From IMG/VR virus record IMGVR_UViG_3300045988_143923: a DNA stretch of 64,000 bases, one strand, 5' to 3'. The notes under the pieces were generated by a model that made no database searches, was not told where the DNA came from, and saw nothing but the letters and a program-made list of their open reading frames with translations. The translations under genes and the position numbers were made by a program. This DNA is from a virus. Positions 431 to 44,708 of this stretch are shown here, in pieces. Each line of letters starts with the position of its first letter. The first letter of the stretch is position 1.

Positions 431-523
431 TGGCAGAGATGGTTGGATTCGAACCAACGAGCGAGAGCGTTACCTCTCTTGGCGGAGTCAAATTCCGCTG
501 CCTTACCGCTTGGCCACACCTCT
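431..523 (-). tRNA. class-II tRNA (long variable arm), hand-folded anticodon UUG, G73, CCA encoded
   Basis: Reverse complement folds as acceptor AGAGGTG/CATCTCT, D arm GCC-AAGCGGTAA-GGC, anticodon stem GCGGA/TCCGC with loop ATTTGAC, ~23-nt variable region containing a GAGAG/CTCTC helix, T arm GTTGG-TTCGAAT-CCAAC. Confidence 0.6.
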
Positions 524-567
524 GTATAAAAAGGGAGGCTCGAAAGCCTCCCGATGAATCAGATAAC

Positions 568-1371: not shown

Positions 1372-1415
1372 AGTGTGTCTCTTCCTTTCTTTAGTGTAAG
1401 TTAGTAAAGGAAACC

Positions 1416-4172: not shown

Positions 4173-4193
4173 TGGGCGTACACCTCCTCGTGT

Positions 4194-4859: not shown

Positions 4860-4921
4860 GATTTAGTCTCCTTAGATTTATTTTTGGGCGGACTATTGCC
4901 CGCCCGAACACCAAAGGTGGA

Positions 4922-5923: not shown

Positions 5924-5995
5924 GTGTATCTTCCTTTCTTCGAAAAATAGAAAAGAGGAGTACAAGACTCCTCAAATGTAGTTGGTTTACAGGGT

Positions 5996-6442
5996 TTACG
6001 CGACGGTAGAAACCTCTACGCGCACGATCTTGCCCATCTTGATACCGGTCGGATCAGAGTAGATGCCGCGGTACTCGTAAGCGTACTGACCAGCAGTTGC
6101 CTTTACGAACTTGCCGTCCTTAGCCTGCAGCTTGTCGCCAGCCTGCAGGGTCTCGGTGTCCAGCTCGGAAGTAGCATACATCTCGCCCGGCAGGGTCTGG
6201 ATAACGCGAACGCGCTCGCCAGCTTCAGCCTTCTCGAACTCGCCGTCGGTCGGCTCAACGATAGAGTAGATGCCCTCGTACTTTGCGTTTACGTCGCACA
6301 GCTTGGTGCCAAGACCTTCTGCGGTTGCCTTTACGGTCTGGTCCTCAGAGTCAACGTCTACCGGCGCGCCCTTCTTAACAACTGCGGAAGTCAGAAGCAG
6401 CTCAACGGGCTTGCCCTGTACAGTTTCAAGCTCTCGAATCAT
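5996..6442 (-). CDS. head decoration-like protein (DUF2190-like by position and size)
   Basis: 148 aa from ATG 6442 (RBS AAGGAGAA); sits between scaffold/protease and capsid genes. Confidence 0.4.
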   Translation of the reverse strand: MIRELETVQGKPVELLLTSAVVKKGAPVDVDSEDQTVKATAEGLGTKLCDVNAKYEGIYSIVEPTDGEFEKAEAGERVRVIQTLPGEMYATSELDTETLQAGDKLQAKDGKFVKATAGQYAYEYRGIYSDPTGIKMGKIVRVEVSTVA

Positions 6443-6467
6443 GTCAATTTCTCCTTTTCTTTTGATT

Positions 6468-7973: not shown

Positions 7974-8154
7974 CGGTCTCGTTCACCTCCTTCGTCACGC
8001 CAAACTCCAGACCGCGCTCTTTCAGTTTTTGTGCGATCAGTTCAGCGTTTTCTTCTTCAAAAAAGGCATCCGCTGGTTTGCAGATGCCTGATTTGCATAA
8101 TAGAAAGTAGTCCCGCTTGCAATACGGGCAAACCAGTTTCAGCTTTTTTTCCAT
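7966..8154 (-). CDS. small zinc-ribbon protein
   Basis: 62-aa ORF with CPYC...C..GIC; coupled between portal and scaffold genes. Confidence 0.5.
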   Translation of the reverse strand: MEKKLKLVCPYCKRDYFLLCKSGICKPADAFFEEENAELIAQKLKERGLEFGVTKEVNETDE

Positions 8155-8157
8155 TGC

Positions 8158-9753
8158 TTACTCCCGTGTGTCGTTGTAGGTTTCGTCGTATCCCTGTTTG
8201 TCCGGGTCATTGGAATCAGCCGGTCGGCCGGGTTCGCTCTCGCCGTCAGCGTTGCCATCAGAATTATACGAGGTAGCATACGGAAGGAAGATATCGCTGA
8301 GACCGTCAGCCTCTTCCTTTTCGCGCTTAACCCGTTCATCCTCAAGGTCGATGCCGACCATGCCGAGGGCGGTCTCACGGCTGACAGCAAACGTGCTGTA
8401 CAGCAGCTTACTAAGCTCCATACGCATATCCATGTCGAGCAGTTCAGAATCGATAATCTTTACACTCGGGATATACTCGGCACCAATGCCGTTGAGCGAC
8501 AGAACCTGACGGTAGAAATGTTCCAACATACGCTCTACCTGCTCAGAGATAGAGTTGATACACTTGAGCAGCTGAGACAGGTTGATGTTGGCAGTGGAAG
8601 CCGTCTGGGACTTGTCTGCTGCCAGAAAGGCGACGCCCAGAGACGAAAGAACTTTGTTGCGGTACAGATTTACCGTTTCCGCAGAGGTTTCGTTTACCTC
8701 CGGCTCAACATACTTGATTTCCTTAACGGATGGGCCAGTGGTAACAACAACCGTACTGGCTTTCCACGCTTGCATCAGATTGTCATGGTTGTATGCCTGT
8801 TCTTCAAAACAACGGCGGTCAGCACTGGGTCCAAGACATTTCTCATTCATCACCTGATGGATGATTTTCTTAGCCTTGCTTTTCGCCGTGGTCTCATCTG
8901 CGTTGCGGTAAGTCTCCAGCATCAAAACGGAAGACATTGCGCGGAAGATAGGGGAGACACCATATTTCTTGCCAAAATTATTGACGCGAACCATATAAGT
9001 ATAATTGTTGTCAAGAATGGCATAGGTCTCCTTAGCCTTCATCGCTTCACCGACCTCTTTCGGGAAGGTTGCTTCGACCTCTTCCTGCGTGTCGTTGAAG
9101 AACAGAGGCTTGCGCTGCTTGTTCTTGAGCATGGTCTTCTGTAGTGCAGACTTCAGGTTTTCGATGCCCACCAGCAGAACCGGATTGCCATTGCTCTCAT
9201 ACCCGGAGTTCTCGATAATATCCAACGGGAGCCAATCAATCTGCCAGTTCTCCGTATTGTTGCGAAGCACAGCCGCGAAGTTGCCCTCAATATATGCCGT
9301 GATAATTGCTTCTCGGATAAACTGCTCGACTCGCACCTGAGAGTTGAAATCATTCAGGATAGCCTGTGCTTTTTCCAGCGTTTTGGTCTTGTTTCGGGCC
9401 CCGTTGAAGTTGCGGTACGACAGCCGGATATCCGTGTTGATGTTGTTTTGAATGGACTGTACGACCATGCCAACAATGTCATCAATGTTGATGTACTTGC
9501 GGATAATAGCATTGATACTCTGGACGCTGGACAGGTTGGATTGCGCTCCTTCGCCCAGAGAGGAAATCGTGCTGGTAGTCAGCGTGCTTGCTGAAGCGCC
9601 ATCGTTGAGATATGCGCTGTACATGCGATTTTGCGGGTCATATGTCGCAACAGCGTGCTTGTATCGCTCCGCAGTTTCGCGGTCGGCAAATGAGGTGACG
9701 ATAGTTGCACCATCTTCCGCCTCATCAATCAGCGGCTTTGGATTTTCAGCCAT
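8158..9753 (-). CDS. portal protein (putative)
   Basis: 531 aa, GGAGGTGA RBS, directly downstream of the large terminase; acidic C-terminus. Confidence 0.6.
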   Translation of the reverse strand: MAENPKPLIDEAEDGATIVTSFADRETAERYKHAVATYDPQNRMYSAYLNDGASASTLTTSTISSLGEGAQSNLSSVQSINAIIRKYINIDDIVGMVVQSIQNNINTDIRLSYRNFNGARNKTKTLEKAQAILNDFNSQVRVEQFIREAIITAYIEGNFAAVLRNNTENWQIDWLPLDIIENSGYESNGNPVLLVGIENLKSALQKTMLKNKQRKPLFFNDTQEEVEATFPKEVGEAMKAKETYAILDNNYTYMVRVNNFGKKYGVSPIFRAMSSVLMLETYRNADETTAKSKAKKIIHQVMNEKCLGPSADRRCFEEQAYNHDNLMQAWKASTVVVTTGPSVKEIKYVEPEVNETSAETVNLYRNKVLSSLGVAFLAADKSQTASTANINLSQLLKCINSISEQVERMLEHFYRQVLSLNGIGAEYIPSVKIIDSELLDMDMRMELSKLLYSTFAVSRETALGMVGIDLEDERVKREKEEADGLSDIFLPYATSYNSDGNADGESEPGRPADSNDPDKQGYDETYNDTRE

Positions 9754-9768
9754 GATGTCACCTCCAAG

Positions 9769-10305
9769 TTAAAATTCCACGGTCGAAACGCACCGTGGCG
9801 CGTATTTGAATTCATCCGTTGACCGTCGGCGCAGGTCGCGCTCCAGTTCGGATGCAATGTAATTGGCATAAGCCAGACTCGAGTAACGGTCTTTACGCAT
9901 ACCGGATACTTCGTACACCCTGATGTTCTGACCGGCCATCTCGTATTCGAGGTTGATCGTCTCGTTTACAAAGGCGGTAGTCTGGTAGTACGGGTGCTGG
10001 TATGCAACCTGTTCCTCAACGGAGAGTTTGCGGTAAGCCTTGCTCTTTTCGAGCAGCTCAACGCCGTCAATTTCGTTGATAAGCAGGCGCAGTTTGCCTC
10101 GTTTGATACAGTCTCGAAGGGAAACTGCCATCTCGGAGTTCTTCGAAGCAGATGCTTTGATGCTGTATATAACTCTCGGAGCATTCGGATTGCGACTTCG
10201 TGCCGCCATATTTTCGTCATTGATGCACGACCATGCTTTATACTCAACTCCTCGGGTCTCGTCGTAAAGGTCTTGAACGAGTTGATCATAGATTGATATT
10301 CCGAC
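9769..10305 (-). CDS. terL: terminase large subunit, 3' exon (nuclease domain C-terminal part)
   Basis: Frame continues ...VGISIYDQLVQDLY...RKDRYSSLAYANY (typical TerL nuclease end); the 21 codons at the 5' end of the 199-aa ORF look non-coding. Confidence 0.7.
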   Translation of the reverse strand, partial: VGISIYDQLVQDLYDETRGVEYKAWSCINDENMAARSRNPNAPRVIYSIKASASKNSEMAVSLRDCIKRGKLRLLINEIDGVELLEKSKAYRKLSVEEQVAYQHPYYQTTAFVNETINLEYEMAGQNIRVYEVSGMRKDRYSSLAYANYIASELERDLRRRSTDEFKYAPRCVSTVEF

Positions 10306-10560
10306 CTCACCTTTTCTTTCTGGTTTTTTATCCAGAAACTTACGGTTTATTTCCCGTAAGATGAGCATATCTTTTCATCTACGTGAGATGGCGCGGACTC
10401 GTGCGAGGATTATAGTTCGCCAAATTGGCGAGATCACCTCGTATGCGTTGCCTGTGACTTCGTCTTTACTCGAAGCCTTCCAGTCGGATTCCCGTCTCAG
10501 GGTTCCCGTTTTCTTCCGCGCTACACTCCAACTGTCGCCAGAAGGAGGGGCGTCGCCACC
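10306..10560 (-). ncRNA. candidate ORF-less group I intron interrupting terL
   Basis: ~255-nt insert between DTN(G) and VGISIY; 5' exon ends in U, insert ends in G; CGAC-A-GTTGG can pair with both exon ends (P10/P1); long-range GCGCGGA/TCCGCGC pairing and several hairpins. Confidence 0.55.
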
Positions 10561-11733
10561 ATTGGTATCAACTACGACATAATCCACATCCAAATCATCA
10601 TAAAGCTGACGGATACGGATCGCTTGGTCTTGACCATGACCACCATCAATGGTCTCCATGTAACATTCATTGCGGATATACTGTCCGGAGTTGTTAGGCA
10701 GGAGCTGCAACAGAGTGATCGCTGTTGCGTCGTTCTTCGCGCCGCCGGAGGTTGCGATATCGCAGCTCAGCAGGCGAATTTCTCCGGGTTCCTTTGTTGG
10801 GTACTTCAGCTTGGGATCGCCGAGTGCCGCATACATAGGCCGCGGATAGACTGGGCGCGTGATGCGCCGGACAGAGTTTAGGTCTGTAAAAGAGAAGAAT
10901 GCACGTTCGGACTCGCCATAAAATTCTGAGCACATTTCCATGCTCCAGCTTATCTCGTTGAAATCATCTTCCTGCATCTCTTCTCGAATCTGTTCCATCG
11001 GGTAATATCCCGCAGAAACAGGAAGTTGATAAGGGAATCCGCACACGATATACGGTTCGCTCTTGATCATCGACTTAAAATAAGCCTTAAATTTCGCCCA
11101 GCTGTAATGCCATTTGAAGTATGCCGAGCTGATATAGGTCTCCGTGTTACGTTCCTTTGGATAGTTCTTGTATTTCGGGAAACTGTAAAAGCCCGGGGTA
11201 CGCTCGCCAGCTTTGAACTTTCTGAGCACCTTATCAATAATATCCTTCGGAATCTGCACGAATTCGTCCGCAATCATCCAGTTTGTACGCGCAGAACGTG
11301 AAGAATCACGCGCTGTTACAACTTTGACCACGGAGCCATTTTTGAATTTGATATACGCCTCGCTAGGCGTCACTTTGTAATCTTCAATCTCGTTCGTTAG
11401 ATTGGGCGAGTCAGGCATGAACTTTTCGACTATCTTGTTCAATAGGTTCGTTGACTGACTTCGGACGCCGGCTGCGACAGTGACTTCCAAACCGGGATAC
11501 AAAATACACCGAACACAAATGGCCGCCGCCACGATCATGGACTTACCCATGCCGCGAGAAGCGATAATCATCACATAGGTGTTCAGACAGATTAAGTCCA
11601 GCAGGATGCACTGGAACATCGCCAGCCATTTCATGCCGAGATAATCCTGAGCAAAACGATGTGGATTAGCTCGATAGAAACTAACCCACTTGCACATACC
11701 TCGTTCAATTTTTTCAGCTTTGGTGGCATCCAT
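10561..11733 (-). CDS. terL: terminase large subunit, 5' exon (ATPase and start of nuclease domain)
   Basis: Walker A ASRGMGKS, Walker B WMIADEF; after ...DYVVVDTN the 452-aa ORF runs into odd sequence and a TGA. Confidence 0.8.
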
Positions 11734-12800
11734 CAGGCATCACCGCCGTTCTCTTCTCCGGCTTCCTTTTCTGCCAGAAGGTCAACACCCTCCATAGCGC
11801 GATTCATAATGGCGTCAAAGACGTCCTCATCATCGAGATCCTCCAAATCAGGGTCATCGACGCGATATTTGTTCATTTCGTCCTCGTACATCTTGGCGTG
11901 TCGGTTCTTAATGCCAAGCATATGGCACAAATGGCCGAGAAAGTAAATGCTGATGAGACGGACGATACCGTCCACATCCTTCCACTCTGGAAGCGGTTCC
12001 GGAATCGGGTCGTGATCCTCGAATCGCTTAATCATCTTTCCGAGCGGGATTTCCGACTCTCGATCCTTTGCTTCAACGATTTTCGGCGTCAGAGCAGCAC
12101 GGTCGAGTGTCTTCTGATAGGTGTCGGTCAATTTCTGATATACGTCCACCTTGCCGTCCAACAGCATCTTGTTCTGCTGCAGCTTGATGATACAGAGCTC
12201 GCGAACCAGAGATTGCTGTGACTTGCCTTTGACGACACACTTCGCCAGCCAGTCCTCATACTCATTCTGCAGGAATTCATACTCGGTGGCGGTAAAGTTA
12301 AGCCCCCACTCATTCATCAGTTCCTTGGTTACTTGAAAATCTGTCTGCTGAGTAGGGGTTTCGGTATCTTCATAGGTCTGCAAAGCCAAGTCCTGTTCCT
12401 CACGAATCGTCGAATCGTAAGTCTTGCTGTCATAAGCGTTGAGGTTCAATTTTGCGATATAAGCCGACATACGGCTCTTATGTGCTCCCATCTCTTTGGA
12501 TGCTTCAACCAGAGTGGGAGAGTAGTATAGATCAAACTTCATGCAGATACGCCGAATCGCCGTGTCTGCATCGAACATTTCCTGATAGCGGTCGAACAGC
12601 GCATCAATACAACCTCGGCAGACAGGAAGTCGGCCGCTGTTGTTGCGATACAGCATTGTGTTCGGTGCATTGTAAAAATCGGTCGCGCGGGAATATTCCG
12701 TCCCGCAGCAGACGCATCGCTTAATCTGGTGCGGCTTTACTGCGGGTGTGAGCTTGTCTTCTTTTTTAGGGATGGTGGGAATCTTAGGCACTAATGCCAT
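11733..12800 (-). CDS. putative terminase small subunit / packaging accessory protein
   Basis: 355 aa directly upstream of and overlapping terL; N-terminal CxxC...CxxC; assignment by position only. Confidence 0.35.
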   Translation of the reverse strand: MALVPKIPTIPKKEDKLTPAVKPHQIKRCVCCGTEYSRATDFYNAPNTMLYRNNSGRLPVCRGCIDALFDRYQEMFDADTAIRRICMKFDLYYSPTLVEASKEMGAHKSRMSAYIAKLNLNAYDSKTYDSTIREEQDLALQTYEDTETPTQQTDFQVTKELMNEWGLNFTATEYEFLQNEYEDWLAKCVVKGKSQQSLVRELCIIKLQQNKMLLDGKVDVYQKLTDTYQKTLDRAALTPKIVEAKDRESEIPLGKMIKRFEDHDPIPEPLPEWKDVDGIVRLISIYFLGHLCHMLGIKNRHAKMYEDEMNKYRVDDPDLEDLDDEDVFDAIMNRAMEGVDLLAEKEAGEENGGDA

Positions 12801-13159
12801 TAACCCTCACCACCTTCCGCCTCCTGCATCGTAGCGTAGAACTGGTCGGAGGCTTCGTTCAGCTTCGGAAAAGCAGTGAATCGCACCGTGTGCTTAGTCG
12901 GTACAATGCGCTTCTTGCCATCAGAACCCGGGAAGTTGTCTACCATCTGGTAAGATTTACGCTCATGGTTTTCAAACTTGCCGAAGTCCGGCAGCGATAG
13001 CACCTCGCATTCCTTGAGAAGCTGCTTAATGCTGTCCAACACGCTGTTTACAACCTTCTTGCTGTCTTCGTAAGCCATCTCGTACAGTTCGGAGTGCTTC
13101 GAGTACAGTGCAGCATAATACAGCGTGTTCTTATCTTCTTTCTTCTTGGCTCTTGCCAT
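12800..13159 (-). CDS. HU/IHF-family DNA-binding protein
   Basis: 119 aa; DFGKFENHERKS...RIVPTKHTVRFTAFPKL matches the HU beta-arm pattern GFGxF..R.ar.grnP...i.....v.F. Confidence 0.65.
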   Translation of the reverse strand: MARAKKKEDKNTLYYAALYSKHSELYEMAYEDSKKVVNSVLDSIKQLLKECEVLSLPDFGKFENHERKSYQMVDNFPGSDGKKRIVPTKHTVRFTAFPKLNEASDQFYATMQEAEGGEG

Positions 13160-13162
13160 GCT

Positions 13163-14368
13163 TTAATCTTCCTCCAGTTTGAGATAATACACGGCATCGC
13201 GGCCATAGTCCTGCTCGAAAGTCATCAGGAGCTGGCTCGGCTTAGCATAAAGTCGCTTGCCGTGTGCATGATTGTCCGAACCGCAAAGAGCCGGCGCGAT
13301 CATGCTGTCCACACCGAATCGGTCAAGCGATTCTGCATGGTGCTTGTCACCCATGATGGCAATATCCACCGGAGTGCCAAGGTCGCGCGACAGCAACATA
13401 TTCGCCGTCACGCCAAAGTCTCGAACCGTGTCCAGATCGCCGTGTGTAGAAACAACGGTCTTGCCGCCGATGAAGTCTGTGATGAACTCCTCGCACATCG
13501 GGCAGACGTTGATGGTATCGTCATCCTTGAGTCGTGTTGCCAGCCACCAAGGGATGATTTTCTCCATATTGTCGGCGTGGATGCTTTCTTTCTTGTTCTG
13601 GACGGTTCTCATATGATTGCCGTAAGTAGCAAACACATCTACACGGTCTACAGCCGCAGAGATCTCATGGATTGCCTCGGCAAGAATTTCTGAGACGCGC
13701 ATCAGCTGGTCGCAGGTATTCTCGACCGATTCCAGTCGAACTGTAGGATGAATTGCTCCATGAGCAAAATCGCCCAGCAGATGAATATGCAGGTCGGTGA
13801 CCTGATGCATCAGCAGACGCTCTACCGTCTCATCAATCAGGCGGCGGACACGCTGAGCGCATGCCTCTGGGTTATAGCTGTTGAACGGATTGTCGCATAC
13901 CATGCCATAGTGCCAATCGGTCAGAACCAGCAGGGCTTCTGTCCCGAGTCGATGAACTTCTCCCGCTCGAGACAGCGGAACCAGTGGCTTGCTCATATTG
14001 AGCTGCTCAGCCGAGCGGATAATGCACTCGTGCAGGCTTTCTTCGCGTGCCTTTGCGTTGACTACGCGTGTCAGTGCCTGACGCTGGTCGTAGAACTTGC
14101 GCTGTTCCTTGCGGAGCTCAAGCTCGCGCTGTTCAATCTCGTGAAGCTGAGCACTGTTATCGGTCAGCTTATCGCGGTTGGCTTCAAAGAGTTTGCAGAA
14201 TGCCGCATAGTCCTTGCGGTACTTGCTCTCGGTGTACTGGTAGCCAAGCTGATAGTTCAGCAGGTCAGCTACGTCCTGCCAAGAACCAATCTGCTCTTTG
14301 ATATTGCCGATACGGTAAATGTAGGCGTACTCGCTCTCATCTTCTTTTCTGAGCCAGTCAGTCTTCAC
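13163..14368 (-). CDS. calcineurin-like metallophosphoesterase
   Basis: 401 aa with ordered motifs TDWHYG, LGDFAHG, YGNH, THGD, GDKHH. Confidence 0.7.
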   Translation of the reverse strand: MKTDWLRKEDESEYAYIYRIGNIKEQIGSWQDVADLLNYQLGYQYTESKYRKDYAAFCKLFEANRDKLTDNSAQLHEIEQRELELRKEQRKFYDQRQALTRVVNAKAREESLHECIIRSAEQLNMSKPLVPLSRAGEVHRLGTEALLVLTDWHYGMVCDNPFNSYNPEACAQRVRRLIDETVERLLMHQVTDLHIHLLGDFAHGAIHPTVRLESVENTCDQLMRVSEILAEAIHEISAAVDRVDVFATYGNHMRTVQNKKESIHADNMEKIIPWWLATRLKDDDTINVCPMCEEFITDFIGGKTVVSTHGDLDTVRDFGVTANMLLSRDLGTPVDIAIMGDKHHAESLDRFGVDSMIAPALCGSDNHAHGKRLYAKPSQLLMTFEQDYGRDAVYYLKLEED

Positions 14369-14577
14369 GCATTAGCCTCCTCGGCAAGGGCAGCCAGTCG
14401 TGCGCGGCGACGGTCGATAACGTCAAGCAGTGCAGCGGCGTCCTTGTTATGTGGGATAACGCGGAGGTACTTCTCCTCCTCGCACAGCCAATACTTGCCG
14501 GTGGCGGTACGCGGAACACGAAGCTCTGGATAAAGTTTGTAGATGGCGGCTCTCTCAGCCTTGGAAATTCGGATCAA
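14365..14577 (-). CDS. small hypothetical protein (TTG start)
   Basis: AAGGAG 10 nt upstream of TTG at 14577; the longer ATG-14706 version would run through the terminator hairpin. Confidence 0.4.
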   Translation of the reverse strand: MIRISKAERAAIYKLYPELRVPRTATGKYWLCEEEKYLRVIPHNKDAAALLDVIDRRRARLAALAEEANA

Positions 14578-14651
14578 ATCGTTATGTCTCCTTAATTTTT
14601 GATAGGTTAGAACGACGAAAAATCGCTTTCTATACCACTTTGGAGAAAAAT

Positions 14652-14697
14652 AAAAAATGGAGCGATTCCCGAAATTTCGGAATATCGCTCCATTTTT
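14652..14697. terminator. bidirectional rho-independent terminator downstream of the RNA polymerase gene
   Basis: TGGAGCGAT...ATCGCTCCA stem with extended inner pairing, flanked by an A6 run and a T5 run. Confidence 0.7.
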
Positions 14698-14726
14698 ATG
14701 TGTCATACTTCTCTCGATTTTTTATG

Positions 14727-17672
14727 TCAACTTGTCATTTTCTGCTTTTTCTCAATGTTCGCTCGGAGGATCTTCGCAATTTCCTGCATAGTGTGAGGTC
14801 GATTTCGTTCTTTGCGACGTTCTTCTTTTTCTGCTTCGTAGAGCTCTTCAAACACACGGCGTTTTGCCTCATACGCCTCGAATGTATAACCGTACAGCTT
14901 TACACTACCTGTCAGGCATTCGGTCGCGATCTGAATTGGCTCACGGCTCGTCTCGAGCATCTCGTAGAACGAAGAGTTCGCCGTCCCGAACAAAGAATCG
15001 AAGAGCAGCTTACTCACGTCTGAATTTTCTTCTTTCTCCATGTCACGCAAGATAACATACATAGTAGCCGTATTGCATTTGTATTTTCCAACATATTCAA
15101 TCAAATCTCGCTTAATTTCCTTAATCTCGTCCCAGTATGCTTCATAGCGTTCATTGGCATCATGATTATCTCCATCTTTGACAGGAGACGCCAGAGCTCC
15201 ATAGATGGAAGCTATCTGTCGGCGCGCATCTCGAACAGCTTCAATAAACTTCCGTGCCAGCTCATACCGCGCCCCAGCCGTGCCGACCATTACCGGGTCG
15301 ATTACATAACTAAAGGGCTTATTTGCTTTGTACGAGCCTCGCCAGAACCGGCAGCGGTTGATTGTGTGCTGAACGTAGTCCATCGCGGTTTTGTGAAACA
15401 GATAGGCTTTCTTTTCGCTATCATAGTATCCTTTACGGCGAGCAAGCGTCCCGAAGAAGTTCGGCTTGATTGCGCGACCCTTGTCGTCACGGCGCTCATA
15501 CTTAGCTTTCAGGCGCTTGTACTCGTCGCGGTTGTTTACCACAAACTCTTTTTTTGCTTTATCAATTTCCAGGCCGCTCATGACATCTAGCATAGACGTA
15601 TCATAGTAAATCTCAGCCACATCCTCAAAAGCCGCGCCGCTGTTGAGCTTATCCCAAAGCAGACTGTTAAGCTCCTGAGAAAGGTTGATAATCTCGCCGA
15701 TCATATTTTCGCTAGTTTTGATGTCGAGGTCTGTCTGCTGGGCACTGGTATAAGCACGCTTGGTTTTTTTAGACTCAACCAACGAAGTCGGAACTTTGAA
15801 GAGGGAGTAATTCTTCTCAGCCGCCTTAATCAGCATCGGATCATCAGTCAACATGCACGTGTCCGAGTCAAAATCAGCACCTGACAATCTTTGTAAAATA
15901 TTCTCGCCGATAGAATTCAAGCATACGATTTCTTCTGTTAAGTTCATATACCGGCGCACTTCAGGCACATACAGGTTGTCCGCCAGCAAGATATTCCCCT
16001 GACACACATGCGGACTGCGTGACCCCAGTAGACGCTGACCGTCATCAAACCGCAGTGACATCACATGACCAACCGGGATAGACGACTCGCCGTCGAACTG
16101 CCCAATAGACGCTTTCAGCATTTCCAGTGGATTGCCGACCAGAGTTGAATAATTACCGTTGACCAAAACATGGCCGCGACGGATGTTGTTCTGATACGAA
16201 CGAATCAGCCCGTCTCGGAACTCGGCATACATCTGCGTCTGTGCGAATCTGTCGTTGATACCCAACAGACGGAAGATAATGTCGTTTCTGGTCAGCAGTG
16301 GAGACTTCATCTCACTGGCCGCCGACTGCTGTTTCAGATGATAGCGCATAACCGCCGGATTGTTCTTCAGCTGTCGCATGTACTCGATGGACGGTTCGAG
16401 GAACTCATCCACCTCTTCCTGCGACATCTGCAGAGTATTCAGTAGCTGATAATGGGTAGACACCATACGTCCGTCAAAGAAGTGTGTCTTCTTCTCATGC
16501 TTTACCACGCCGAACATAGGGTCAGTACGTTTCAGCCACTCGCGCAGCCGGCCAAACTTCAAATACTTAATGCTGGACGGTGTAGTGATCAGCTTGATGT
16601 CCTCTATGGACTTCGCTAACGTGAATCCGTTCAGCTGCTCGATTTTCGTAATCCCGTGGTCAGCAAGGAACTGCTGAATGTTTGCGTTGAAGCAGCAGGA
16701 CTTGAAAAATCGGTTTCGGAGCAGCAGCATGCCGTACTGCTCGTACTTGGGGCCAAACAGAGACTTGTCCATCAAAGACTGACCGTCCCAGATGCTGTTC
16801 GTGATCTCGACGTGCTCGGGGCCAGACACCAGATGACCGTCTTCACGCACTCTGGTCGCGATAACGTCATCCGTAAACGTGCTCTCAAAATCATCGATTA
16901 CCAGAAAGTTCTCCGGCCGCACCTCCAGCGTGTCCACAATAGAGCTTGCCGTCAGCGCGATATAGCTTTCCAGAGCAGCGAGGTCAATCGCCTGTCCCGG
17001 CTGCACCTTGATGCCGCACATCTCCCACTTGTGCATAGCGGGGTAGAGGCGTTCATCGATGTACAAACACTTGCCAACACGAGAAGAACCGGCCGACCGC
17101 TTGTAACGAACATAATGGATACCGTCACAATAGAAGCCCTTTTCGTAAAGCTCCTCGCGGATGTCAGCAACACTAACCTCGGTGGCAATGTTAATCTTTG
17201 CTTTGTACTGGCCGTCTTCCAGATAGAAATACTTGCCGAGTACGGAATGGGGTAGGGGGTTCTGGACATTCGTGTCGCACTGGATGGCAATCAGCTCGCC
17301 GTCGACAACATACACGCAGTCATCCATGTTCTCGGCAATCTCATCGTATCGCCAGCCGTTTTTGATGTACAGCGTCTTGCGGATACGGTTGAATGCCTTG
17401 ACTGCGTAATGCGCCGTCACGTTGATAACACGGTGGGTGTATTCCTTGCCGCCCAACTCAAAAGAGAAATTCCTGCGGCGGTATACCCGCTCGTAGACGT
17501 CTCTCAACTTGAGCAGGTCGAGCGAGTAATCCAGCGTGTTTCTGAATCGCTTCAGATTGAACCCGCCGTCCGAAGACCGGATGTTGTATCCGATCTCGGT
17601 TGGACGGTCATAGTGGTTTGCGAGGTAGACATCCTTGCCGTCCACACTTGGAATGTATACGGCATTCGTCAT
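14727..17672 (-). CDS. single-subunit two-barrel RNA polymerase (YonO / RdRP-like)
   Basis: 981 aa; ...GSRSPHVCQGNILL...LSGADFDSDTCMLTDD: RxP segment followed by ADFDSD, close to the universal beta-prime NADFDGD metal-binding motif. Confidence 0.7.
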   Translation of the reverse strand: MTNAVYIPSVDGKDVYLANHYDRPTEIGYNIRSSDGGFNLKRFRNTLDYSLDLLKLRDVYERVYRRRNFSFELGGKEYTHRVINVTAHYAVKAFNRIRKTLYIKNGWRYDEIAENMDDCVYVVDGELIAIQCDTNVQNPLPHSVLGKYFYLEDGQYKAKINIATEVSVADIREELYEKGFYCDGIHYVRYKRSAGSSRVGKCLYIDERLYPAMHKWEMCGIKVQPGQAIDLAALESYIALTASSIVDTLEVRPENFLVIDDFESTFTDDVIATRVREDGHLVSGPEHVEITNSIWDGQSLMDKSLFGPKYEQYGMLLLRNRFFKSCCFNANIQQFLADHGITKIEQLNGFTLAKSIEDIKLITTPSSIKYLKFGRLREWLKRTDPMFGVVKHEKKTHFFDGRMVSTHYQLLNTLQMSQEEVDEFLEPSIEYMRQLKNNPAVMRYHLKQQSAASEMKSPLLTRNDIIFRLLGINDRFAQTQMYAEFRDGLIRSYQNNIRRGHVLVNGNYSTLVGNPLEMLKASIGQFDGESSIPVGHVMSLRFDDGQRLLGSRSPHVCQGNILLADNLYVPEVRRYMNLTEEIVCLNSIGENILQRLSGADFDSDTCMLTDDPMLIKAAEKNYSLFKVPTSLVESKKTKRAYTSAQQTDLDIKTSENMIGEIINLSQELNSLLWDKLNSGAAFEDVAEIYYDTSMLDVMSGLEIDKAKKEFVVNNRDEYKRLKAKYERRDDKGRAIKPNFFGTLARRKGYYDSEKKAYLFHKTAMDYVQHTINRCRFWRGSYKANKPFSYVIDPVMVGTAGARYELARKFIEAVRDARRQIASIYGALASPVKDGDNHDANERYEAYWDEIKEIKRDLIEYVGKYKCNTATMYVILRDMEKEENSDVSKLLFDSLFGTANSSFYEMLETSREPIQIATECLTGSVKLYGYTFEAYEAKRRVFEELYEAEKEERRKERNRPHTMQEIAKILRANIEKKQKMTS

Positions 17673-17791
17673 TCAGTCACCTCGCCACTATATTCGGCGC
17701 GGAGACGATCACGCATAGACAAGTGCGCGTCAGGATCGCCCGCTTGGTAGTAACTCATTTCGAGCCAATATTCACTTGGCTCAAGATCTAC

Positions 17792-17893
17792 CTATACAAC
17801 TGCGTACCCGCAGACATCATCTGCTGTCATGTTGCAGGAGTTGTAGCGCGAGCAATACTCGCAGTCATCGTGGATGCAGTGGTTTTTCTTCAT
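17792..17893 (-). CDS. 33-aa Cys-rich peptide
   Basis: AAAGGAGAA RBS then ATG at 17893; MKKNHCIHDDCEYCSRYNSCNMTADDVCGYAVV; below the ORF-track size cutoff. Confidence 0.4.
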   Translation of the reverse strand: MKKNHCIHDDCEYCSRYNSCNMTADDVCGYAVV

Positions 17894-17955
17894 TTAGTTT
17901 TCTCCTTTTATTGGTTTTCTGGCGGCAAAAGCGGCCGCCTCGCTCTCCTTGCTTT

Positions 17956-18711
17956 TTAAGCCTCAGCCGCGAACTTCTCGAACAGCTTCTGCTGACCCTT
18001 GCCGGTAATGGAAGGAACGGTGAAGGCGTGACCGGCCTTGATGACCTCGTAGGTCTTGAACCAGCCGTTGTTGATGTAACGCTGATACGGCATATTGTTA
18101 GCCTGCAGGAAGCCATTTTTGCGGAGCCACTGGAACATGCGGTTGCGGCCAGTCTGGATGCCGAGTTTCTCAGTTACGAGCTTTGCAAAACGCTCGATGG
18201 TGAGAGTTGCGGAAGTGCTGCCGACCGCGTTATAGAAATCAACTTTGTGCTCATCGGCGGCGATCTTAGCTTCGGCTTCCATTCGGCGCTGCTTCTCTTC
18301 CTTCAGCGTGGTAGCCAGTTGGATGAGAAAATCAGGATCGGCCAGAGACTTCTCGATGATGTCCGTGTCCATGTAAGCGCCGTGCTTGCGGATAGTGGGC
18401 AGAACCTCGGAAGTCACCCAACGCTTGAAAACCTTTGCAGTCGGCAGCTTGCTTGCAACGATGAGGCTGTAAAGACCTGATTCGTTGATAACAACTTTAT
18501 TTGGGTTGCCCTGAATACCGTCGCGAATCGCGACGCTATTTTTATCTTCATCGTCTACATGTTTCGCTAAAGCATCACGCTGATTCTTGTACCCGAGAAT
18601 ATCGGCTACATCCTTGCCTACAAACCACGGCTCGCCGTCACGGACAACGGTGCGTACCTGCTGGTCGTTAAAGATGAATTCCTGGGTTACATAGTTGGTA
18701 TTTGCGTTCAT
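17956..18711 (-). CDS. Bro-N / KilA-C (ANT) antirepressor-like protein
   Basis: 251 aa from ATG 18711; N-terminal F.F.....VR....GEPWFV.KDVA..LGY (Bro-N) and a C-terminal ANT/KilAC-like half. Confidence 0.75.
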   Translation of the reverse strand: MNANTNYVTQEFIFNDQQVRTVVRDGEPWFVGKDVADILGYKNQRDALAKHVDDEDKNSVAIRDGIQGNPNKVVINESGLYSLIVASKLPTAKVFKRWVTSEVLPTIRKHGAYMDTDIIEKSLADPDFLIQLATTLKEEKQRRMEAEAKIAADEHKVDFYNAVGSTSATLTIERFAKLVTEKLGIQTGRNRMFQWLRKNGFLQANNMPYQRYINNGWFKTYEVIKAGHAFTVPSITGKGQQKLFEKFAAEA

Positions 18712-18733
18712 AATATTTGCACTTCCTTGAGAA

Positions 18734-19804
18734 TTAGTTTTCTGTTTTCTTGCGTCGTTTTTTATACTTGCCACGCTTCCGCACCAGAAACAGAGGTTCA
18801 AGCTCGGCGGCTATCGCTTTGTTACCGGTGTAAAATACGCGGGGGTTTAACATAATGCTTCCGACCGGCAAACCGTGGAACGGTTCTTTCAGCCGGGTCA
18901 TAATCGTCTCCGTTCCTTTGCTGGTTCGGATGACTTGGTTGTAATAGAGGCTGGTCAACTCTCCGTAACCGCTTCGCTCATAGCCACCAGCGGCACAAAG
19001 CCGAGCGGCTGTAAGAGGAGCCACCAGAAACGGATCATCCTGAAAGGGGTTCAGACAAAATACGTTGAAGTCCTTATGCAGATAAGGAAGCATCGGAAGC
19101 AGGTATTTCAGCCCCAGACTCATGGACTCAGTCCTATACATCTGTGCGATAGAGGAGAAATACATCCTCACATACCTGAAACCGCTCTGCTCCGCTTTCG
19201 TAGACTCGCGTCGTGTAATCTCACCCCTGCGAAACAGGTCTTGGTTAAACAACCACTCGCCGCGGTCATTCTGCCAGATGAAGTCTCTCGCTCGGAACGT
19301 CCGCAGCATTCCCTGAACAACTGGCGCGGTCAGCTGGAACACCTTTGACAAATAGTTCACGATGTCCGGCGGATACACGTCAGCCGCGATCATCAGGTGC
19401 TTGTCAGTAGTAGTCAGGAGCATCATCAGCTTCTGCGCCTCGGTTGGCGTGACGTCATAATAGCTCCCGCCTTCGAGCGGGACGCGCAGCCAGACGAAAG
19501 AGCCATAGGCCGGAGTGGCTGTTGAAACATCTCGCTTATAAGGCTTCGCGGCTGGATTGGCTCCGATATCTCTAATGCGTGCTTCAAAGAAGTCCGGGTC
19601 GAGATAACGGATATCCTTTGGCTCAAGTTTCACCTTGGGGTTGTAGTACCGCAGTACCGAGGTCGGAATATAAGCCCGCTGTCCATTGCCCTCCAGTGTG
19701 AAGGGAACAACGGCGGCGAACTCATGTAAATCAGCCCCGGAGTTGGCTATGTCACGCAGGGTCAGCTCGGCCAACTGCGTTTTTTCTGGCTGGGATTTAC
19801 CCAT
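18734..19804 (-). CDS. hypothetical protein (candidate iteron-binding/replication protein)
   Basis: 356-aa ORF starting 10 nt from a 5-copy iteron array; basic C-terminus KRGKYKKRRKK. Confidence 0.55.
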   Translation of the reverse strand: MGKSQPEKTQLAELTLRDIANSGADLHEFAAVVPFTLEGNGQRAYIPTSVLRYYNPKVKLEPKDIRYLDPDFFEARIRDIGANPAAKPYKRDVSTATPAYGSFVWLRVPLEGGSYYDVTPTEAQKLMMLLTTTDKHLMIAADVYPPDIVNYLSKVFQLTAPVVQGMLRTFRARDFIWQNDRGEWLFNQDLFRRGEITRRESTKAEQSGFRYVRMYFSSIAQMYRTESMSLGLKYLLPMLPYLHKDFNVFCLNPFQDDPFLVAPLTAARLCAAGGYERSGYGELTSLYYNQVIRTSKGTETIMTRLKEPFHGLPVGSIMLNPRVFYTGNKAIAAELEPLFLVRKRGKYKKRRKKTEN

Positions 19805-19813
19805 GTTGCTTCC

Positions 19814-19918
19814 CGTCCTTCCAAATCGAACTCGCGTCCTTCCAAATCAAACCCGCCGTCCTTCCAAATCAAACTTATCGTCCTTCCAAATCAAACTCGT
19901 CGTCCTTCCAAATCAAAC
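19814..19918. repeat. five tandem 18-nt iterons CGTCCTTCCAAATC(A/G)AAC, 21-22-bp period
   Basis: Copies start at 19814, 19835, 19857, 19879, 19901. Confidence 0.9.
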
Positions 19919-19920
19919 CC

Positions 19921-19976
19921 TAATCATAAATACACTAATCATAAATACATAATCAAAATACTTAATCATAAATACA
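19921..19976. repeat. AT-rich repeats TAATCATAAATACA (3 copies plus 1 degenerate)
   Basis: Copies at 19921, 19936, 19963; degenerate copy near 19950. Confidence 0.8.
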
Positions 19977-20038
19977 TAGGCTGAGCTGGGCAGATTTTGA
20001 AAATGCCAGCCAGAGAAATGGAGAAATGGAATCACGCG

Positions 20039-20070
20039 GAATGAGGCTCACTCAGAATGAGGCTCACTCA
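20039..20070. repeat. tandem 16-nt repeat GAATGAGGCTCACTCA x2
   Basis: Perfect tandem duplication just downstream of the RepA_N-like gene. Confidence 0.85.
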
Positions 20071-20079: not shown

Positions 20080-20460
20080 TCACGCTTCGTCTGAACGATT
20101 GGTCGGTATATAAATGCGCGGGGTAGAGAACTGACATTGGCTGTGTCGGCGAATCAGATGTGCTTCTTCAAGCTCCTTAAATATCTGCAGCGCTTTCTTC
20201 TCTCCACAAGAGATGTCGTTCATAACATCTTTGAGAGAGTAATAGATGAATGGCTCGCCATCTTCGTCAATCCATTCTGGCCGGCTTTTTGATAGCTGCA
20301 TTCGGTAGAGCATGAGAGAATACAGGATCTTCCCAGCCGGAGAGACAGACTTGAGGTCAGGAGTTACGGGGATAGGGATGAAATCGAATCCGCTGCGGCC
20401 ATCGTAGCTACGGAACTTTGGGTTCTTCTATGTCGTGTGGATAGCTGGTCGTTTTGCCAT
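20080..20460 (-). CDS. RepA_N-like winged-helix protein with in-frame TAG at codon 11 (readthrough candidate or pseudogene)
   Basis: GGAGG RBS then ATG 20460; MAKRPAIHTT-TAG-KNPKFRSYDGRSGFDFIPIPV...GKILYSLMLYR...DEDGEPFIYYSLKDV...PRIYI aligns with the RepA_N domain of the 38380 gene. The first in-frame ATG after the TAG (20313) would truncate the domain. Confidence 0.5.
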
Positions 20461-20510
20461 CTGAATACCTCCTCCGCGGGGTAATTGGATTTTTTTTGCT
20501 TCTATTAACT

Positions 20511-20539
20511 ACTATACAAAAAAGGCGTTTTTGGGACGC
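20511..20539 (-). promoter_or_regulatory. phage promoter class GCGTCC-N17-TATAGT (copy A)
   Basis: Reverse complement reads TTCGCGTCCCAAAAACGCCTTTTTTGTATAGTA, ~50 nt upstream of ATG 20460. Confidence 0.5.
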
Positions 20540-20680
20540 GAAGTTGAAGAAAAAGATGCATAAAGATTGAGAATTCTTTTGTGCATGTTGCTGAATGGGA
20601 AAATAGCAATCTGAAGTATGCTCTTCTGGCTGGCTTAGACCTATGTAGCAATACTTAGGTAGCAATACTGAAATAGATAA

Positions 20681-20711
20681 AGCCGACCATTAGACCTTGG
20701 CCGGCTGTTTT
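20681..20711 (+). terminator. possible rho-independent terminator (weak)
   Basis: AGCCGACC...GGCCGGCT stem (one mismatch) followed by GTTTT. Confidence 0.3.
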
Positions 20712-21197
20712 AATGAGCGGATACGCCTCTGTGATAGAGCAGGTATGGAGAGGTACGTCAATCATTGAAGAACCATTTTCGTTCTGGCGGCAGAATTGAG
20801 CTGTAATCGATTTTGACATGCGGATGGGAAATTATACCACGAGAATACAAAAAGCCAGTACAGGGCATTCTGAGGCGAATACAGGGCATTGTAGGCAATA
20901 TGTGGAAATGTATGGAAACTATAGGGGTGGGTTTTAGAGATCGCGGCGGCTAATTTATATAGCAGAGAACAATCATAGTAGAGCAGGAGTGTGTAGTGCT
21001 ACATAGTGCTATAGGCAGTATTCCCTTCTGGCGGGAGATAAGGAGATGATAAGTTAGATACAGGATTGCATGGCAGCTGTAGACCTGCGTGACAGATGCA
21101 TGATGGAGCTGCAGTAGAGCTTCCGTAGAGCTTGTGGCTGGCTATACTCGAGCTGACGGTTACAGCAGATTATAGGAATGCACCTTTTTCGAGTGTT

Positions 21198-21336
21198 CGG
21201 GAAAGGGGGAGTGGCGAAAACTCGGGAACAGCGCACGAAATTGAGGAAACGGGGATTAAAGAGGGGAAAAGGGATGGGGAGGAGAGCGAAAGTTCGGGGA
21301 AAGAGGGGGAAAATATGGGGTAGAGTGAGATGAGGT
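21198..21336 (+). repeat. ~140-nt polypurine tract with multiple G3-G5 runs
   Basis: GGGAAAGGGGGAG...GGGGATTAAAGAGGGGAAAAGGGATGGGGAGGAG...GGGGAAAGAGGGGGAAAATATGGGG; almost no pyrimidines on the plus strand. Confidence 0.85.
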
Positions 21337-21798
21337 AACTACCTTTCCTGAAACTGGTAAAATATCTGGAAAAGTGTAAAATATACCCCATATGATAAAA
21401 AAGAAGCATTTACACCGCTGAAAAGTGCCGGAATGCTGTTTTATAGTATACTTGAAAAGTCGATTTTTGAAGCAGGCCGATTTTTTGAGGTGTCAAGACA
21501 CATATCTTTACGCCTAAAGTTGGATATATGAACAGTCGCTCATATGTTATTTTCTTAACATAGTGTTGGCGTGTTGTCTTCTGGTGATCGGCAGGACAGA
21601 GGGCGGAATTCTCAAAAAATAGGCGTGCAGCACGACGGAAAAATCTTTTTTGCGCGCTTTTCTGATTTTTTCTAAAAACTTTTCCGTGCTCTAAATCCCT
21701 GTTTTCGTCTTTTTCGCCTGTTTTGCGAACCTCTACGCGCGCGTGCGTTTTCATTATCTTTGAAAAAATTGCCCCCAAAAATTTTTTTGAAAAAAGTG

Positions 21799-21827
21799 TT
21801 GACACTGTGCGCACAGAGTGCTATACT
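21799..21827 (+). promoter_or_regulatory. near-consensus sigma70-type promoter
   Basis: TTGACA (21799-21804), 17-nt spacer, TATACT (21822-21827); A/T-rich upstream region. Confidence 0.7.
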
Positions 21828-21887
21828 GTGAGCACAGTCAAGGAACGGCACCCCGCCGGACGGCTTGACAGGGACAGTGCCCACTGT
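21805..21887. promoter_or_regulatory. three palindromic operator-like sites sharing ACAGT/ACTGT half-sites
   Basis: CTGTGCGCACAG (21805-21816, in the spacer), ACTGTGAGCACAGT (21825-21838, over the -10/+1), ACAGTGCCCACTGT (21874-21887, between a second TTGACA and TATAGG). Confidence 0.5.
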
Positions 21888-21976
21888 ATAGGGCACGGGG
21901 CGCGCCCCCTATAGCGTGAAGTCCGGACGGCGTCCGGCGTGAAGTTTGACAAGTGAACAGCGACTTCTCGGCTTGT

Positions 21977-22134
21977 ACCGCTTTCCCTCGATAGAGGGCG
22001 GGCGGGTTTCGAGTGCACCGCTTTTCCCTCGATAGAGGGCGGGCGGGCGTTATGCTTGACAGGTCGAAAAGAACAGTTGTGAGAATACCGCTTTCCGGTC
22101 GTGCATAACGGAATTGCACGACTTTCCGCGGGCG
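21977..22134 (+). repeat. three ACCGCTTTCC-hairpin-GGGCG modules in a GC-rich leader
   Basis: 21977-22006 and 22017-22047 nearly identical (CCCTC-GATA-GAGGG hairpin); 22087-22134 has the same flanks around a different 8-bp hairpin GTCGTGCA/TGCACGAC. Confidence 0.75.
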
Positions 22135-22435
22135 CGTTGCGCTTGCGGGTGGGAAAGTGCTTGCGTTCTGCATATGCGGTTCAATCGTGACAGGTGCACC
22201 GCGCAGAGTAGGCAAGGACGGGCTTAGCCCCCGCAAGCAAGCTACGTTTAGCGTGTCCGTGAAAACACGTACCAAAACCGCGCAAGCGGCGGCGGGGTTT
22301 GCGGTTATCCAAAACCGCGCAGGCAGTACATAACAGGTTTCCCCCCGGGGGGTCCCCTTCAATTGACCCCCCGGTGCCAATGCCGCAAGGCAAGTACATA
22401 TTCACGCAAGGACTTTACATACTGGAGGTTTTATT

Positions 22436-38379: not shown

Positions 38380-39348
38380 ATGAAAGAAAATACCAATCGA
38401 GTGGGCGACTTTTCGTTCATTCGCTTTCCGGCGGCACTGGTCAAGCTGCCCTGTTTCAAAGCACTTTCCGCTGACGCTAAACTTCTTTACGCCTTAATTG
38501 TAGATCGGTTCAACCTCTCTATCTCGAATAAATGGAGAGATGAAAACGGTACGCCGTATGTCTATTTTTCCATTGACTCGGTGATGGAAAGCATTGGCTG
38601 TGCAAAGGCAAAAGCGGTCAAGCTGATGGATACGCTCGAAGATTGGGGTCTCATTCGCAGAGCGAAGCAAGGGCTCGGCAAGCCGAATCGCATCTATGTG
38701 CTCGACCCGGCATTGCTCGACCAGTTCGAAAACCGAACCACTTTATCCACAAGCTCATCCACAGACCAGTTCGATTCTGATACCAGTTCGGAAATCAAAC
38801 CGGTCGGAAATCAAACCACTTTATCCACAGACCAGTTTGATTCTGAAACTACTTTATCCACAGACCAGTTCGATAATCAAACCAGTTCAGACCAGTTCGA
38901 TTTTGAGACTAGTTCGATTATCAAACCCAAGAAGTTTGATTTTCAAACCCAAGAAGTTCGATTTTCAAACCCTAATCAGACTAAGTATAATCAGACTAAT
39001 AATAATCAGACTGAAAGGACAGAGAGAGAAACGAAAGTCCCGGCTCTGGTCAGCGGCGTCATGAACCAGAATGCAAAGGAAATTCTTTGCAGAAGTTTTG
39101 ACGAAGCCTTAGTGAAGCGGACAACCAGTCTGCTCTATGAACTCGTAGCAACACCGAGCCAACACGTTCGCGTTGATAACACACTGACAAGCGGCTACGC
39201 TCTCAGCCAGCAGTTGGCTAATATCAGCGTAGAGCAAATCCAGTCGGCGCTGAATAACTTCACAACAAGAACATGTCCTGCAGCAGAGGAACGAGATTAC
39301 TTACTGACAGCATTGTATGACGCAAGCAAGAATAACAGAACATCATAG
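38380..39348 (+). CDS. RepA_N-family replication initiator
   Basis: 322 aa; F.FIRFP..L......KALSADAKLLYALIVDRFNLS..NKWRDENG.PYVYFS.....E.IGC...KAVKLMD.LE.WGLIRR......KPNRIYV; central region encoded by dense DNA repeats. Confidence 0.7.
   Translation: MKENTNRVGDFSFIRFPAALVKLPCFKALSADAKLLYALIVDRFNLSISNKWRDENGTPYVYFSIDSVMESIGCAKAKAVKLMDTLEDWGLIRRAKQGLGKPNRIYVLDPALLDQFENRTTLSTSSSTDQFDSDTSSEIKPVGNQTTLSTDQFDSETTLSTDQFDNQTSSDQFDFETSSIIKPKKFDFQTQEVRFSNPNQTKYNQTNNNQTERTERETKVPALVSGVMNQNAKEILCRSFDEALVKRTTSLLYELVATPSQHVRVDNTLTSGYALSQQLANISVEQIQSALNNFTTRTCPAAEERDYLLTALYDASKNNRTS
38737..39015. repeat. iteron-like direct repeats inside the RepA_N gene
   Basis: ACCACTTTATCCACAGACCAGTTCGAT variants (x3), GACCAGTTCGATT (many), TCAAACCCAAGAAGTTYGATTT (x2), AATCAGACT (x4). 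Confidence 0.85.
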
Positions 39349-44608: not shown

Positions 44609-44614
44609 GCACAT

Positions 44615-44708
44615 AGAGGAGTGGTGTAACGGTCAGCACGCAGGGTTCTAACCCCTGAGCAGGTGACACCCTGCGTCGGTCTGGGTTCGAGTCCCGGCTC
44701 CTCCGCCA
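44615..44708 (+). tRNA. amber suppressor tRNA (anticodon CTA), class-II scaffold
   Basis: Anticodon arm CAGGG-TTCTAAC-CCCTG (CTA at 44648-44650); 23-nt variable region with GCAGG/CCTGC helix; T arm CTGGG-TTCGAGT-CCCGG; acceptor AGAGGAG/CTCCTCC (A1-C72 mismatch); G73; CCA. Confidence 0.75.

Follow-up and report, generated by a model that had tools for sequence, protein, structure and literature searches.

A conserved in-frame TAG in a RepA_N-like gene of an SPbeta-like gut phage and its putative decoding by a phage-encoded tRNA(CUA)

Recoding of the TAG stop codon, and the carriage of suppressor tRNAs by relatives that keep the standard code, have been described in phages (Borges et al., bioRxiv 10.1101/2021.08.26.457843). 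In the same study, recoding was suggested to control the expression of late or lytic genes, and perhaps the lysogeny switch as well. In the gut phages phAss-1, 41 TAG-containing ORFs and three suppressor tRNAs were reported; they were compared by the authors with Spbetavirus genomes, and Clostridia were predicted as hosts (Babkin et al. 2023, PMC10607447). Genome surveys have led to the proposal that phages regulate genes by means of suppressor tRNAs and in-frame stops, which is hard to test where dozens of genes are recoded and the hosts are uncultured. The system presented here involves a single codon, a single gene and a single tRNA. Whereas stop-codon recoding in phages is known, the new element is one fixed TAG at the DNA-binding gene that heads an operon in a phage using the standard code.

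The analysis was conducted on a 64,000-nt stretch of viral DNA (IMG/VR record IMGVR_UViG_3300045988_143923), hereafter the window. It is part of a temperate, SPbeta-like phage of gut Clostridia with a genome of about 125 kb: contigs of relatives are ~125 kb long, minus-strand genes at 1-19804 match terminase, portal protein, exonuclease and anti-repressor, the terminase shares 44% identity with YonF of SPbeta, and the gene order follows yonF-yonG-yonJ-yonN-yonO. Furthermore, the Pfam families YonB, YonD, YonG, YonJ, YomU, YomV, YomW and YomN were present in the gene calls of relatives. The phage is common in human gut metagenomes, and the 356-aa protein encoded next to the gene studied here is indexed in 208 blocks of an assembly collection, the samples shown including human gut metagenomes. 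One annotated copy lies on a 709-kb contig of Butyricicoccus sp. AM05-1, and the strain-style name suggests a cultured isolate. A search of GenBank phages returned nothing at near-identity to 22 kb, and two scans of GTDB representative genomes found nothing; the evidence for the host therefore rests on one NCBI protein name, that of Butyricicoccus sp. AM05-1.

The gene interrupted by TAG (hereafter the TAG gene) is the first of a leftward operon. It is followed by the 356-aa gene (18734..19804, minus strand) and then by an Ant/Bro gene, a 981-aa YonO-like gene, YonJ, HU, YonG, terminase and portal genes. The 981-aa gene occupies the yonO position and exhibits weak collinear similarity to YonO, and its homologue in a relative gave a weak Pfam RdRP match. 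It should be added that this gene (14727-17672, minus strand) is represented in several relatives (L004, L005, L008, L010, L022-L025) by three ORFs, of 710, 253 and 271 aa or of 623, 105 and 264 aa, which suggests an inserted element or a split gene, and that in one relative an IS605 OrfB/TnpB-type gene (Cas12f1-like_TNB; L022:5384-6511) lies between the 356-aa gene and the Ant gene. A 2-kb non-coding stretch (20461-22430) with almost no credible ORF parts the TAG gene from the rightward block; G+C-rich repeats were noted in it, e.g. CGCCCGCCCTCTATCGAGGGAAA, found twice near 22040-21990, along with a GGGG..CCCC palindrome near 22370. At ~56800-64000 and in contig L058, genes for nicotinamidase-like protein, phosphoribosyltransferase, NAMPT and NAD synthase were identified; the same part of the window also encodes ADP-ribosylglycohydrolase, PARG-like, SocA_Panacea and 'Sequestin' families, and this NAD/ADP-ribose-related run is likely a counter-defence block.

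The layout of the TAG gene, entirely on the minus strand, could be read directly in the sequence, as the original prediction had it: a strong GGAGG-type ribosome-binding site (GGAGGAGG, 20468..20475) lies 7 nt 5' of the start ATG (20460-20458), which opens the leader MAKRPAIHTT of codons 1-10 (20431..20460). Codon 11 is the in-frame TAG (20428..20430), in the context ACA-TAG-AAG/AAT. It is followed by 115 sense codons (12-126; 20083..20427) that encode a short linker and a RepA_N winged-helix domain, and the 126-codon frame is closed by TGA (20080-20082). The GGAGG core is kept in all relatives while the flanking bases differ, and the next base 3' of TAG is A in every copy; in E. coli genetics it is established that amber suppression is favoured by a 3' purine. 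A promoter scan found no consensus promoter 5' of the gene, and the conserved block upstream of it is presumed to act as promoter.

With the TAG filled in, the predicted product matched Pfam RepA_N (PF06970) over residues 37-97 with 54.3 bits against a cut-off of 30 (1.3e-14). It also matched solved RepA N-terminal domains, 4PTA with 1.2e-09 and 4PQL, 5KBJ and 4PT7 with ~2e-06. The PDB chains of these domains comprise 131-136 aa, and residues 32-108 of the query correspond to chain positions 25-100; the readthrough product is therefore of the size of a complete RepA N-terminal domain. By the same offset, the first 24 chain residues would correspond approximately to query residues 8-31. The post-TAG part had been said to align from its first residues with the RepA_N domain encoded at 38380; the similarity to this paralogue was confirmed (39% identity over residues 25-118), with the correction that the alignment begins 14 residues past the TAG. 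Both the ORF list and reading of the frame bore out the statement that no ATG, GTG or TTG occurs between the TAG and Met-50, which is the start of a 77-aa ORF (20080..20313). Initiation at Met-50 would cost approximately the first 42 chain positions, i.e. about a third of the domain, and the Pfam, paralogue and PDB alignments agree with the predicted loss of the N-terminal third. The ORF stops after 126 codons, and the C-terminal domain of full-length RepA_N initiators (~300 aa in total) is missing. Standard gene callers recover only a fragment of 73-99 residues, and such truncation of the gene represents an annotation hazard.

TAG was found at this codon position in 45 of 45 independent assemblies, which represent three diverged alleles and many samples. 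Forty-four of these loci were obtained as matches to DNA patterns agnostic to the codon or were reached through neighbouring genes, and the third allele constitutes the 45th. TAG was present in all 44, which span 22 protein variants; they include ten near-identical loci and nine IMG/VR contigs with amino-acid divergence of up to 8%. When the metagenome collection was scanned with a DNA pattern in which any codon was allowed at position 11, 18 of 18 matches had TAG. None of the 45 copies contained another stop or a frameshift in the frame of the TAG gene. In the second allele the RepA_N domain is only 59% identical, and the leader and the in-frame TAG are unchanged. The third allele, reached independently via the neighbouring gene, has a 7-codon leader (MASPRFT), another spacing of the ribosome-binding site and the sequence ACT-TAG-AAG-AAC-CC, in frame with a diverged domain. 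Chance or sequencing error is thus excluded by the 45 independent assemblies, and the fixation of a single TAG at one position in three alleles looks like the result of selection, not of drift. In a more remote relative, with 57% identity in the neighbouring protein, the corresponding RepA_N gene encodes 180 aa from an ordinary ATG with no internal stop; the TAG arrangement is therefore specific to this lineage.

Relatives carrying a sense codon at this position would have spoken for simple mutation, and none was found in the search for them. Ten database proteins of 126 residues (P0001-P0010), in which residue 11 is Q, were considered as such relatives and rejected, as the DNA of two of them reads TAG. 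Translation of this DNA under table 11 gives no match to the database protein sequence, and all ten proteins come from contigs of 2 kb or less. These Q versions are an artefact of a gene caller using a TAG=Gln model. In the same protein collection, P0014 and P0018 apparently have TGA translated as W, a non-standard code on short contigs. The "Gln" versions in large protein databases, being products of gene callers and not of the DNA, pose a further annotation hazard, since they may be mistaken for sense-codon relatives.

Coding constraint around the TAG was estimated as pN/pS from 19 distinct nucleotide sequences of the main allele, with synonymous divergence of ~0.2. The ratio was 0.20 for codons 1-10 (bootstrap 95% CI 0-0.71), with synonymous changes in the leader at codons 3, 5, 7 and 8. 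Codons 12-15 are hypervariable. Values of 0.10 (0-0.34) and 0.16 (0.05-0.34) were obtained for codons 16-27 and 16-49, respectively, none of the 2000 bootstrap replicates reaching 1 for the latter, and the value for codons 50-126 was 0.13 (0.05-0.25). The low pN/pS of codons 16-49 indicates that the stretch from the TAG to Met-50 is translated in this frame. This stretch has no start of its own, and the ATG, the ribosome-binding site and the frame persist in three alleles; translation that begins at Met-1 and continues through the TAG accounts for this most simply. The locus thereby has the features of programmed readthrough, namely a conserved stop and a downstream frame under purifying selection without its own start.

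In the ~100 kb surveyed, the phage otherwise follows the standard code. We looked for coding segments preceded by an in-frame TAG and lacking a start codon within 15 codons, in the window and ~35 kb of extensions from the same or closely related genomes (~100 kb of the ~125-kb phage). This search returned the TAG gene alone, the few weak candidates having non-coding upstream segments. Standard-code translation gives full-length terminase, portal and YonB/D/G/J homologues, and gene calls of relatives are dense. With late genes intact and a single TAG-interrupted gene in ~100 kb, the region is otherwise of standard code, in line with the original prediction. Counted in the phage alone, stop use among ~97 ORFs of the window was TAA 56, TGA 36 and TAG 5. 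The three TAG terminators noticed initially among ~75 plus-strand ORFs (39348, 46946 and 54069) were recovered, and the other two end doubtful 63-aa ORFs; in the extensions, TAG ends 2 of ~220 ORFs. As TAG is nearly absent as a terminator, a resident suppressor is affordable. Back-up stops gave no signal: the three TAG-terminated genes have one within 4-7 codons, as do 30-53% of the others, which is not significant. Among the features of a TAG-sense recoded phage, a CUA tRNA and rarity of TAG terminators were thus observed here, while numerous TAG-interrupted genes and their concentration among structural and lysis genes were not.

The predicted tRNA with anticodon CUA (44615..44708, plus strand; 94 nt) was found by both ARAGORN and Rfam (tRNA model, 50.3 bits). 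It is the last of a Gly-Met-Lys-CUA tRNA cluster located downstream of a sigma-factor-like gene (43251-44033, plus strand), which lies directly upstream of the cluster. Its anticodon arm consists of a 5-bp stem (CAGGG/CCCTG) and a clean 7-nt loop, UUCUAAC, with the loop features of an amber suppressor: CUA at positions 34-36, U33 and a purine at 37. The D-loop contains GG, the T-loop contains TTCGA, the discriminator is G73 and CCA is encoded; positions A1 and C72 are mismatched, and the extra arm, of 23 nt, is unusual. None of its 94 columns varies among 7 genomes, as compared with 42 of 603 (~7%) in the flanks. In IMG/VR, the tRNA(CUA) was detected on 6 contigs only, all 6 of which carry the TAG gene, and no version of it with another anticodon was found there. 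Taking the window and 8 IMG/VR contigs in which both loci were readable, the invariant tRNA is present in 7 of the 9 genomes. All copies are from a single phage lineage, so shared descent explains part of the association between gene and tRNA.

The two remaining contigs (L011 and L018) have an intact TAG gene and a different, 76-nt tRNA at the tRNA locus, with an identical D-arm (Rfam 49 bits). Its loop, UUUCUAAC, is ambiguous: on one reading it has 8 nt with CUA among them, on the other it has 7 nt, the anticodon is UCU (Arg) and the stem contains a bulge. This weakens a strict dependence of the TAG gene on a clean CUA tRNA and represents the main weakness of the proposed decoding. Quadruplet decoding of UAGA by the 8-nt-loop variant was considered as a productive route and discarded, as the shifted frame stops after ~20 codons.

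ARAGORN gave the label tRNA-Pyl to every CUA-anticodon tRNA reported here. A tRNA-Pyl features a 3-nt variable loop, a small D-loop without GG and a 6-bp anticodon stem, and has no T-psi-C motif; the present sequence, with its D-loop GG, TTCGA, 5-bp anticodon stem and 23-nt extra arm, does not conform, and the label was rejected. The nearest tRNA in the window is the phage tRNA-Gln(UUG), and similarity to the Gln identity elements described in E. coli is seen in G73, the weak 1-72 pair, G2-C71 and U35. Glutamine is accordingly our best guess, as read from the tRNA sequence, for the amino acid that would be inserted at the TAG; serine is possible, the long extra arm and G73 being suited to seryl-tRNA synthetase. 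BLAST of both tRNA forms against annotated phage tRNAs assigned no amino-acid identity.

Several further observations concern unusual tRNAs of this lineage. The tRNA-Gln(UUG) itself (window 431-523, minus strand; locus also read at L069:3988-4080 and L070:4006-4080) is 93 nt long, with a hairpin of ~18 nt inserted in the variable region and a differing anticodon stem. In a close relative, this locus is occupied by a tRNA-Gln of normal length (75 nt), whose acceptor and T arms are identical. It follows that the extra arm is polymorphic and replaces the anticodon-stem and variable segment. A Ser-like nature of the 93-nt tRNA(UUG) was rejected, since the D-arm and the 75-nt allele of the relative show it to be tRNA-Gln with an inserted arm. 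In two relatives, the slot of tRNA-Met(CAU) (window 44211-44287) is taken by a tRNA of 94 nt that has a UAU anticodon, A73 and a long extra arm (L027:2863-2956, L029:3276-3369), a third case of an extra-arm tRNA in the phage lineage. Just 5' of the tRNA(CUA) lies a 56-nt tRNA-like element (window ~44555-44610, plus strand; L051:4298-4353 in a relative, where it scored 44.7 bits with the Rfam tRNA model), which has acceptor stem, D-arm and T-arm and no anticodon arm. Two other odd tRNA-like genes were detected on the plus strand, one at 62264-62336 with a two-base 'anticodon' according to ARAGORN (Rfam 35.6 bits) and another at 55734-55848, which is 115 nt long, was matched by Rfam only (34.6 bits) and possibly contains an insertion.

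As to the role of the protein, approximately five direct repeats of 22 nt (iterons), whose unit reads GTTTGATTTGGAAGGACGnnnn on the gene strand, are located between the TAG gene and the next ORF (19813..19918, minus strand). They adjoin 3-4 copies of the AT-rich short repeat TAATCATAAATAC (19915..19978), and two tandem 16-nt repeats (20032..20063) lie just past the stop codon of the TAG gene, all on the same strand. The three protein alleles are accompanied by three variants of the 22-nt repeat, with a common GTTTGAT core and a differing second half of the unit. Since each allele has its own repeats directly downstream, the protein probably binds them. It may possibly also bind related repeats inside the full-length RepA_N paralogue, a 322-aa gene that ends in TAG (38380..39348, plus strand; Pfam 75.7 bits), the central part of which contains 22-nt tandem repeats with the GTTTGATT core: ten copies of this core exist in the window, five at 38793-38941 and four in the iterons. 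In plasmid RepA_N replicons the origin is situated inside the rep gene. Given that the product of the TAG gene comprises the N-terminal domain only and that a complete RepA_N gene exists elsewhere in the phage, its domain content makes a repeat-binding regulator or accessory factor more likely than an initiator. It should be added that a tyrosine-recombinase-like gene (39624-40451, plus strand) is located directly 3' of the full-length RepA_N gene, a plasmid-like arrangement of replicon and resolvase.

From the sequence data outlined above, we infer that the tRNA(CUA) decodes the TAG of the RepA_N-like gene, and we regard gating of its translation by this suppressor as the best explanation of the locus, held with moderate confidence. 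If no TAG-reading tRNA were available, the ribosome would release a 10-residue peptide and no DNA-binding protein would be made; in the presence of the phage tRNA(CUA), supplied from a gene 24 kb away in an oppositely oriented block, the TAG would be read as an amino acid, and the full 126-residue protein could then bind the 22-nt repeats directly downstream. Should the TAG be read only with the tRNA(CUA), the protein would be conditional on expression of this tRNA. Such a gate may serve for timing or for the choice between lysogeny and the lytic cycle. The suppressor-dependent expression of a single gene, as originally predicted, is supported by the conservation of the TAG, the rejection of a pseudogene and the standard code elsewhere.

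Among the alternatives, it is conceivable, although unlikely, that termination at the TAG is leaky at the level of the host, so that low basal readthrough by host tRNAs keeps the protein scarce and the tRNA(CUA) serves otherwise, either as a replacement for host tRNAs cut by a defence system or in the extension of other proteins. The two relatives that keep the TAG gene intact without a clean CUA tRNA are compatible with this, and conserved in-frame stops with low dN/dS are reported as common in prokaryotic genes (PMC7918605). However, a dedicated and invariant tRNA(CUA) resides in the same genome in 7 of 9 cases. Furthermore, TGA is the leakier stop in bacteria, and the stop found here was TAG in 45 of 45 copies, never TGA or TAA, a weak point given that these represent only ~20 distinct sequences.

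A more far-reaching and rather doubtful extension of suppressor gating is that the TAG and the tRNA(CUA), as the two parts of one switch, control the entire leftward operon via polarity. A stop at codon 8-11 would leave ~620 nt of untranslated RNA before the next gene, and transcription could end before it reaches the genes for the YonO-like late polymerase and the head. The tRNA, produced from the opposite early block, would then restore the coupling of translation with transcription and license the late programme. If this were true, a single amber codon would act as a lysogeny or early-to-late checkpoint of an SPbeta-like phage. The RNA just 3' of the TAG contains a C-rich, G-poor patch, which is too weak to support polarity.

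It is also improbable that the first ten codons represent a regulatory uORF and that the RepA_N protein is started independently at a non-canonical codon. In the NCBI annotation of the Butyricicoccus sp. AM05-1 copy, ATC at codon 28 is used as the start of a 99-aa protein, and the second allele has GTG at the equivalent place, called as a start; moreover, copies of the main allele show conservation of the leader peptide as well. Nevertheless, codons 16-27, upstream of the presumed start, exhibit the above pN/pS of 0.10 at normal synonymous divergence and are thus translated; neither a start nor a near-cognate codon occurs from the TAG to codon 16, and codon 28 is preceded by no Shine-Dalgarno sequence. 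The leader and the domain are kept in one frame in three alleles despite different leaders; the third allele, with a leader of another sequence and length, speaks against a regulatory peptide that is sequence-specific. Finally, a plain nonsense pseudogene, the alternative named originally, or a sequencing or assembly error is hardly credible and was rejected: it would agree with the 73-99-residue fragment seen by standard gene callers, but not with TAG in 45 of 45 independent assemblies, three alleles free of other lesions, pN/pS far below 1 on both sides of the TAG including the stretch up to Met-50, and the conserved ribosome-binding site and ATG.

Suppressor gating would place this locus next to the TAG-recoded ('code 15') gut phages, with which it shares a phage tRNA(CUA), a host of standard code and depletion of TAG as a terminator, and in which the in-frame TAG has been proposed as a post-transcriptional gate; the genome of phAss-1 is about equal in size to that of the present phage. 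Recoded phages, however, have TAG in dozens of genes, mainly structural and lysis ones, and standard-code calls in them are fragmented, whereas one small DNA-binding gene is concerned here. Similarly to standard-code relatives that have acquired a suppressor tRNA, i.e. the intermediate of Borges et al., the phage has rare TAG stops and a resident suppressor. That intermediate predicts passive accumulation of in-frame stops, in contrast with the single TAG fixed across three alleles.

A conserved in-frame stop and a constrained downstream ORF are likewise known from programmed readthrough (e.g. the Q-beta A1 protein; survey in PMC7918605). Classical readthrough extends a complete protein at its C-terminus by means of host tRNAs, whereas the present genome supplies the cognate tRNA, and a stop at codon 8-11 leaves, unlike classical readthrough, no functional short product. 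With the RepA_N plasmid initiators, such as RepA of pSK41 and pTZ2162, the protein shares a winged-helix N-terminal domain of the same size and repeats that adjoin the gene; unlike them, it is without the C-terminal domain, and a complete RepA_N gene exists elsewhere in the phage. In its predicted behaviour, the arrangement resembles laboratory amber-mutant phages on suppressor hosts and engineered amber gating, where the product is made only with a suppressor tRNA; unlike these laboratory systems, it is natural, conserved in wild populations, and has both of its parts carried by the phage.
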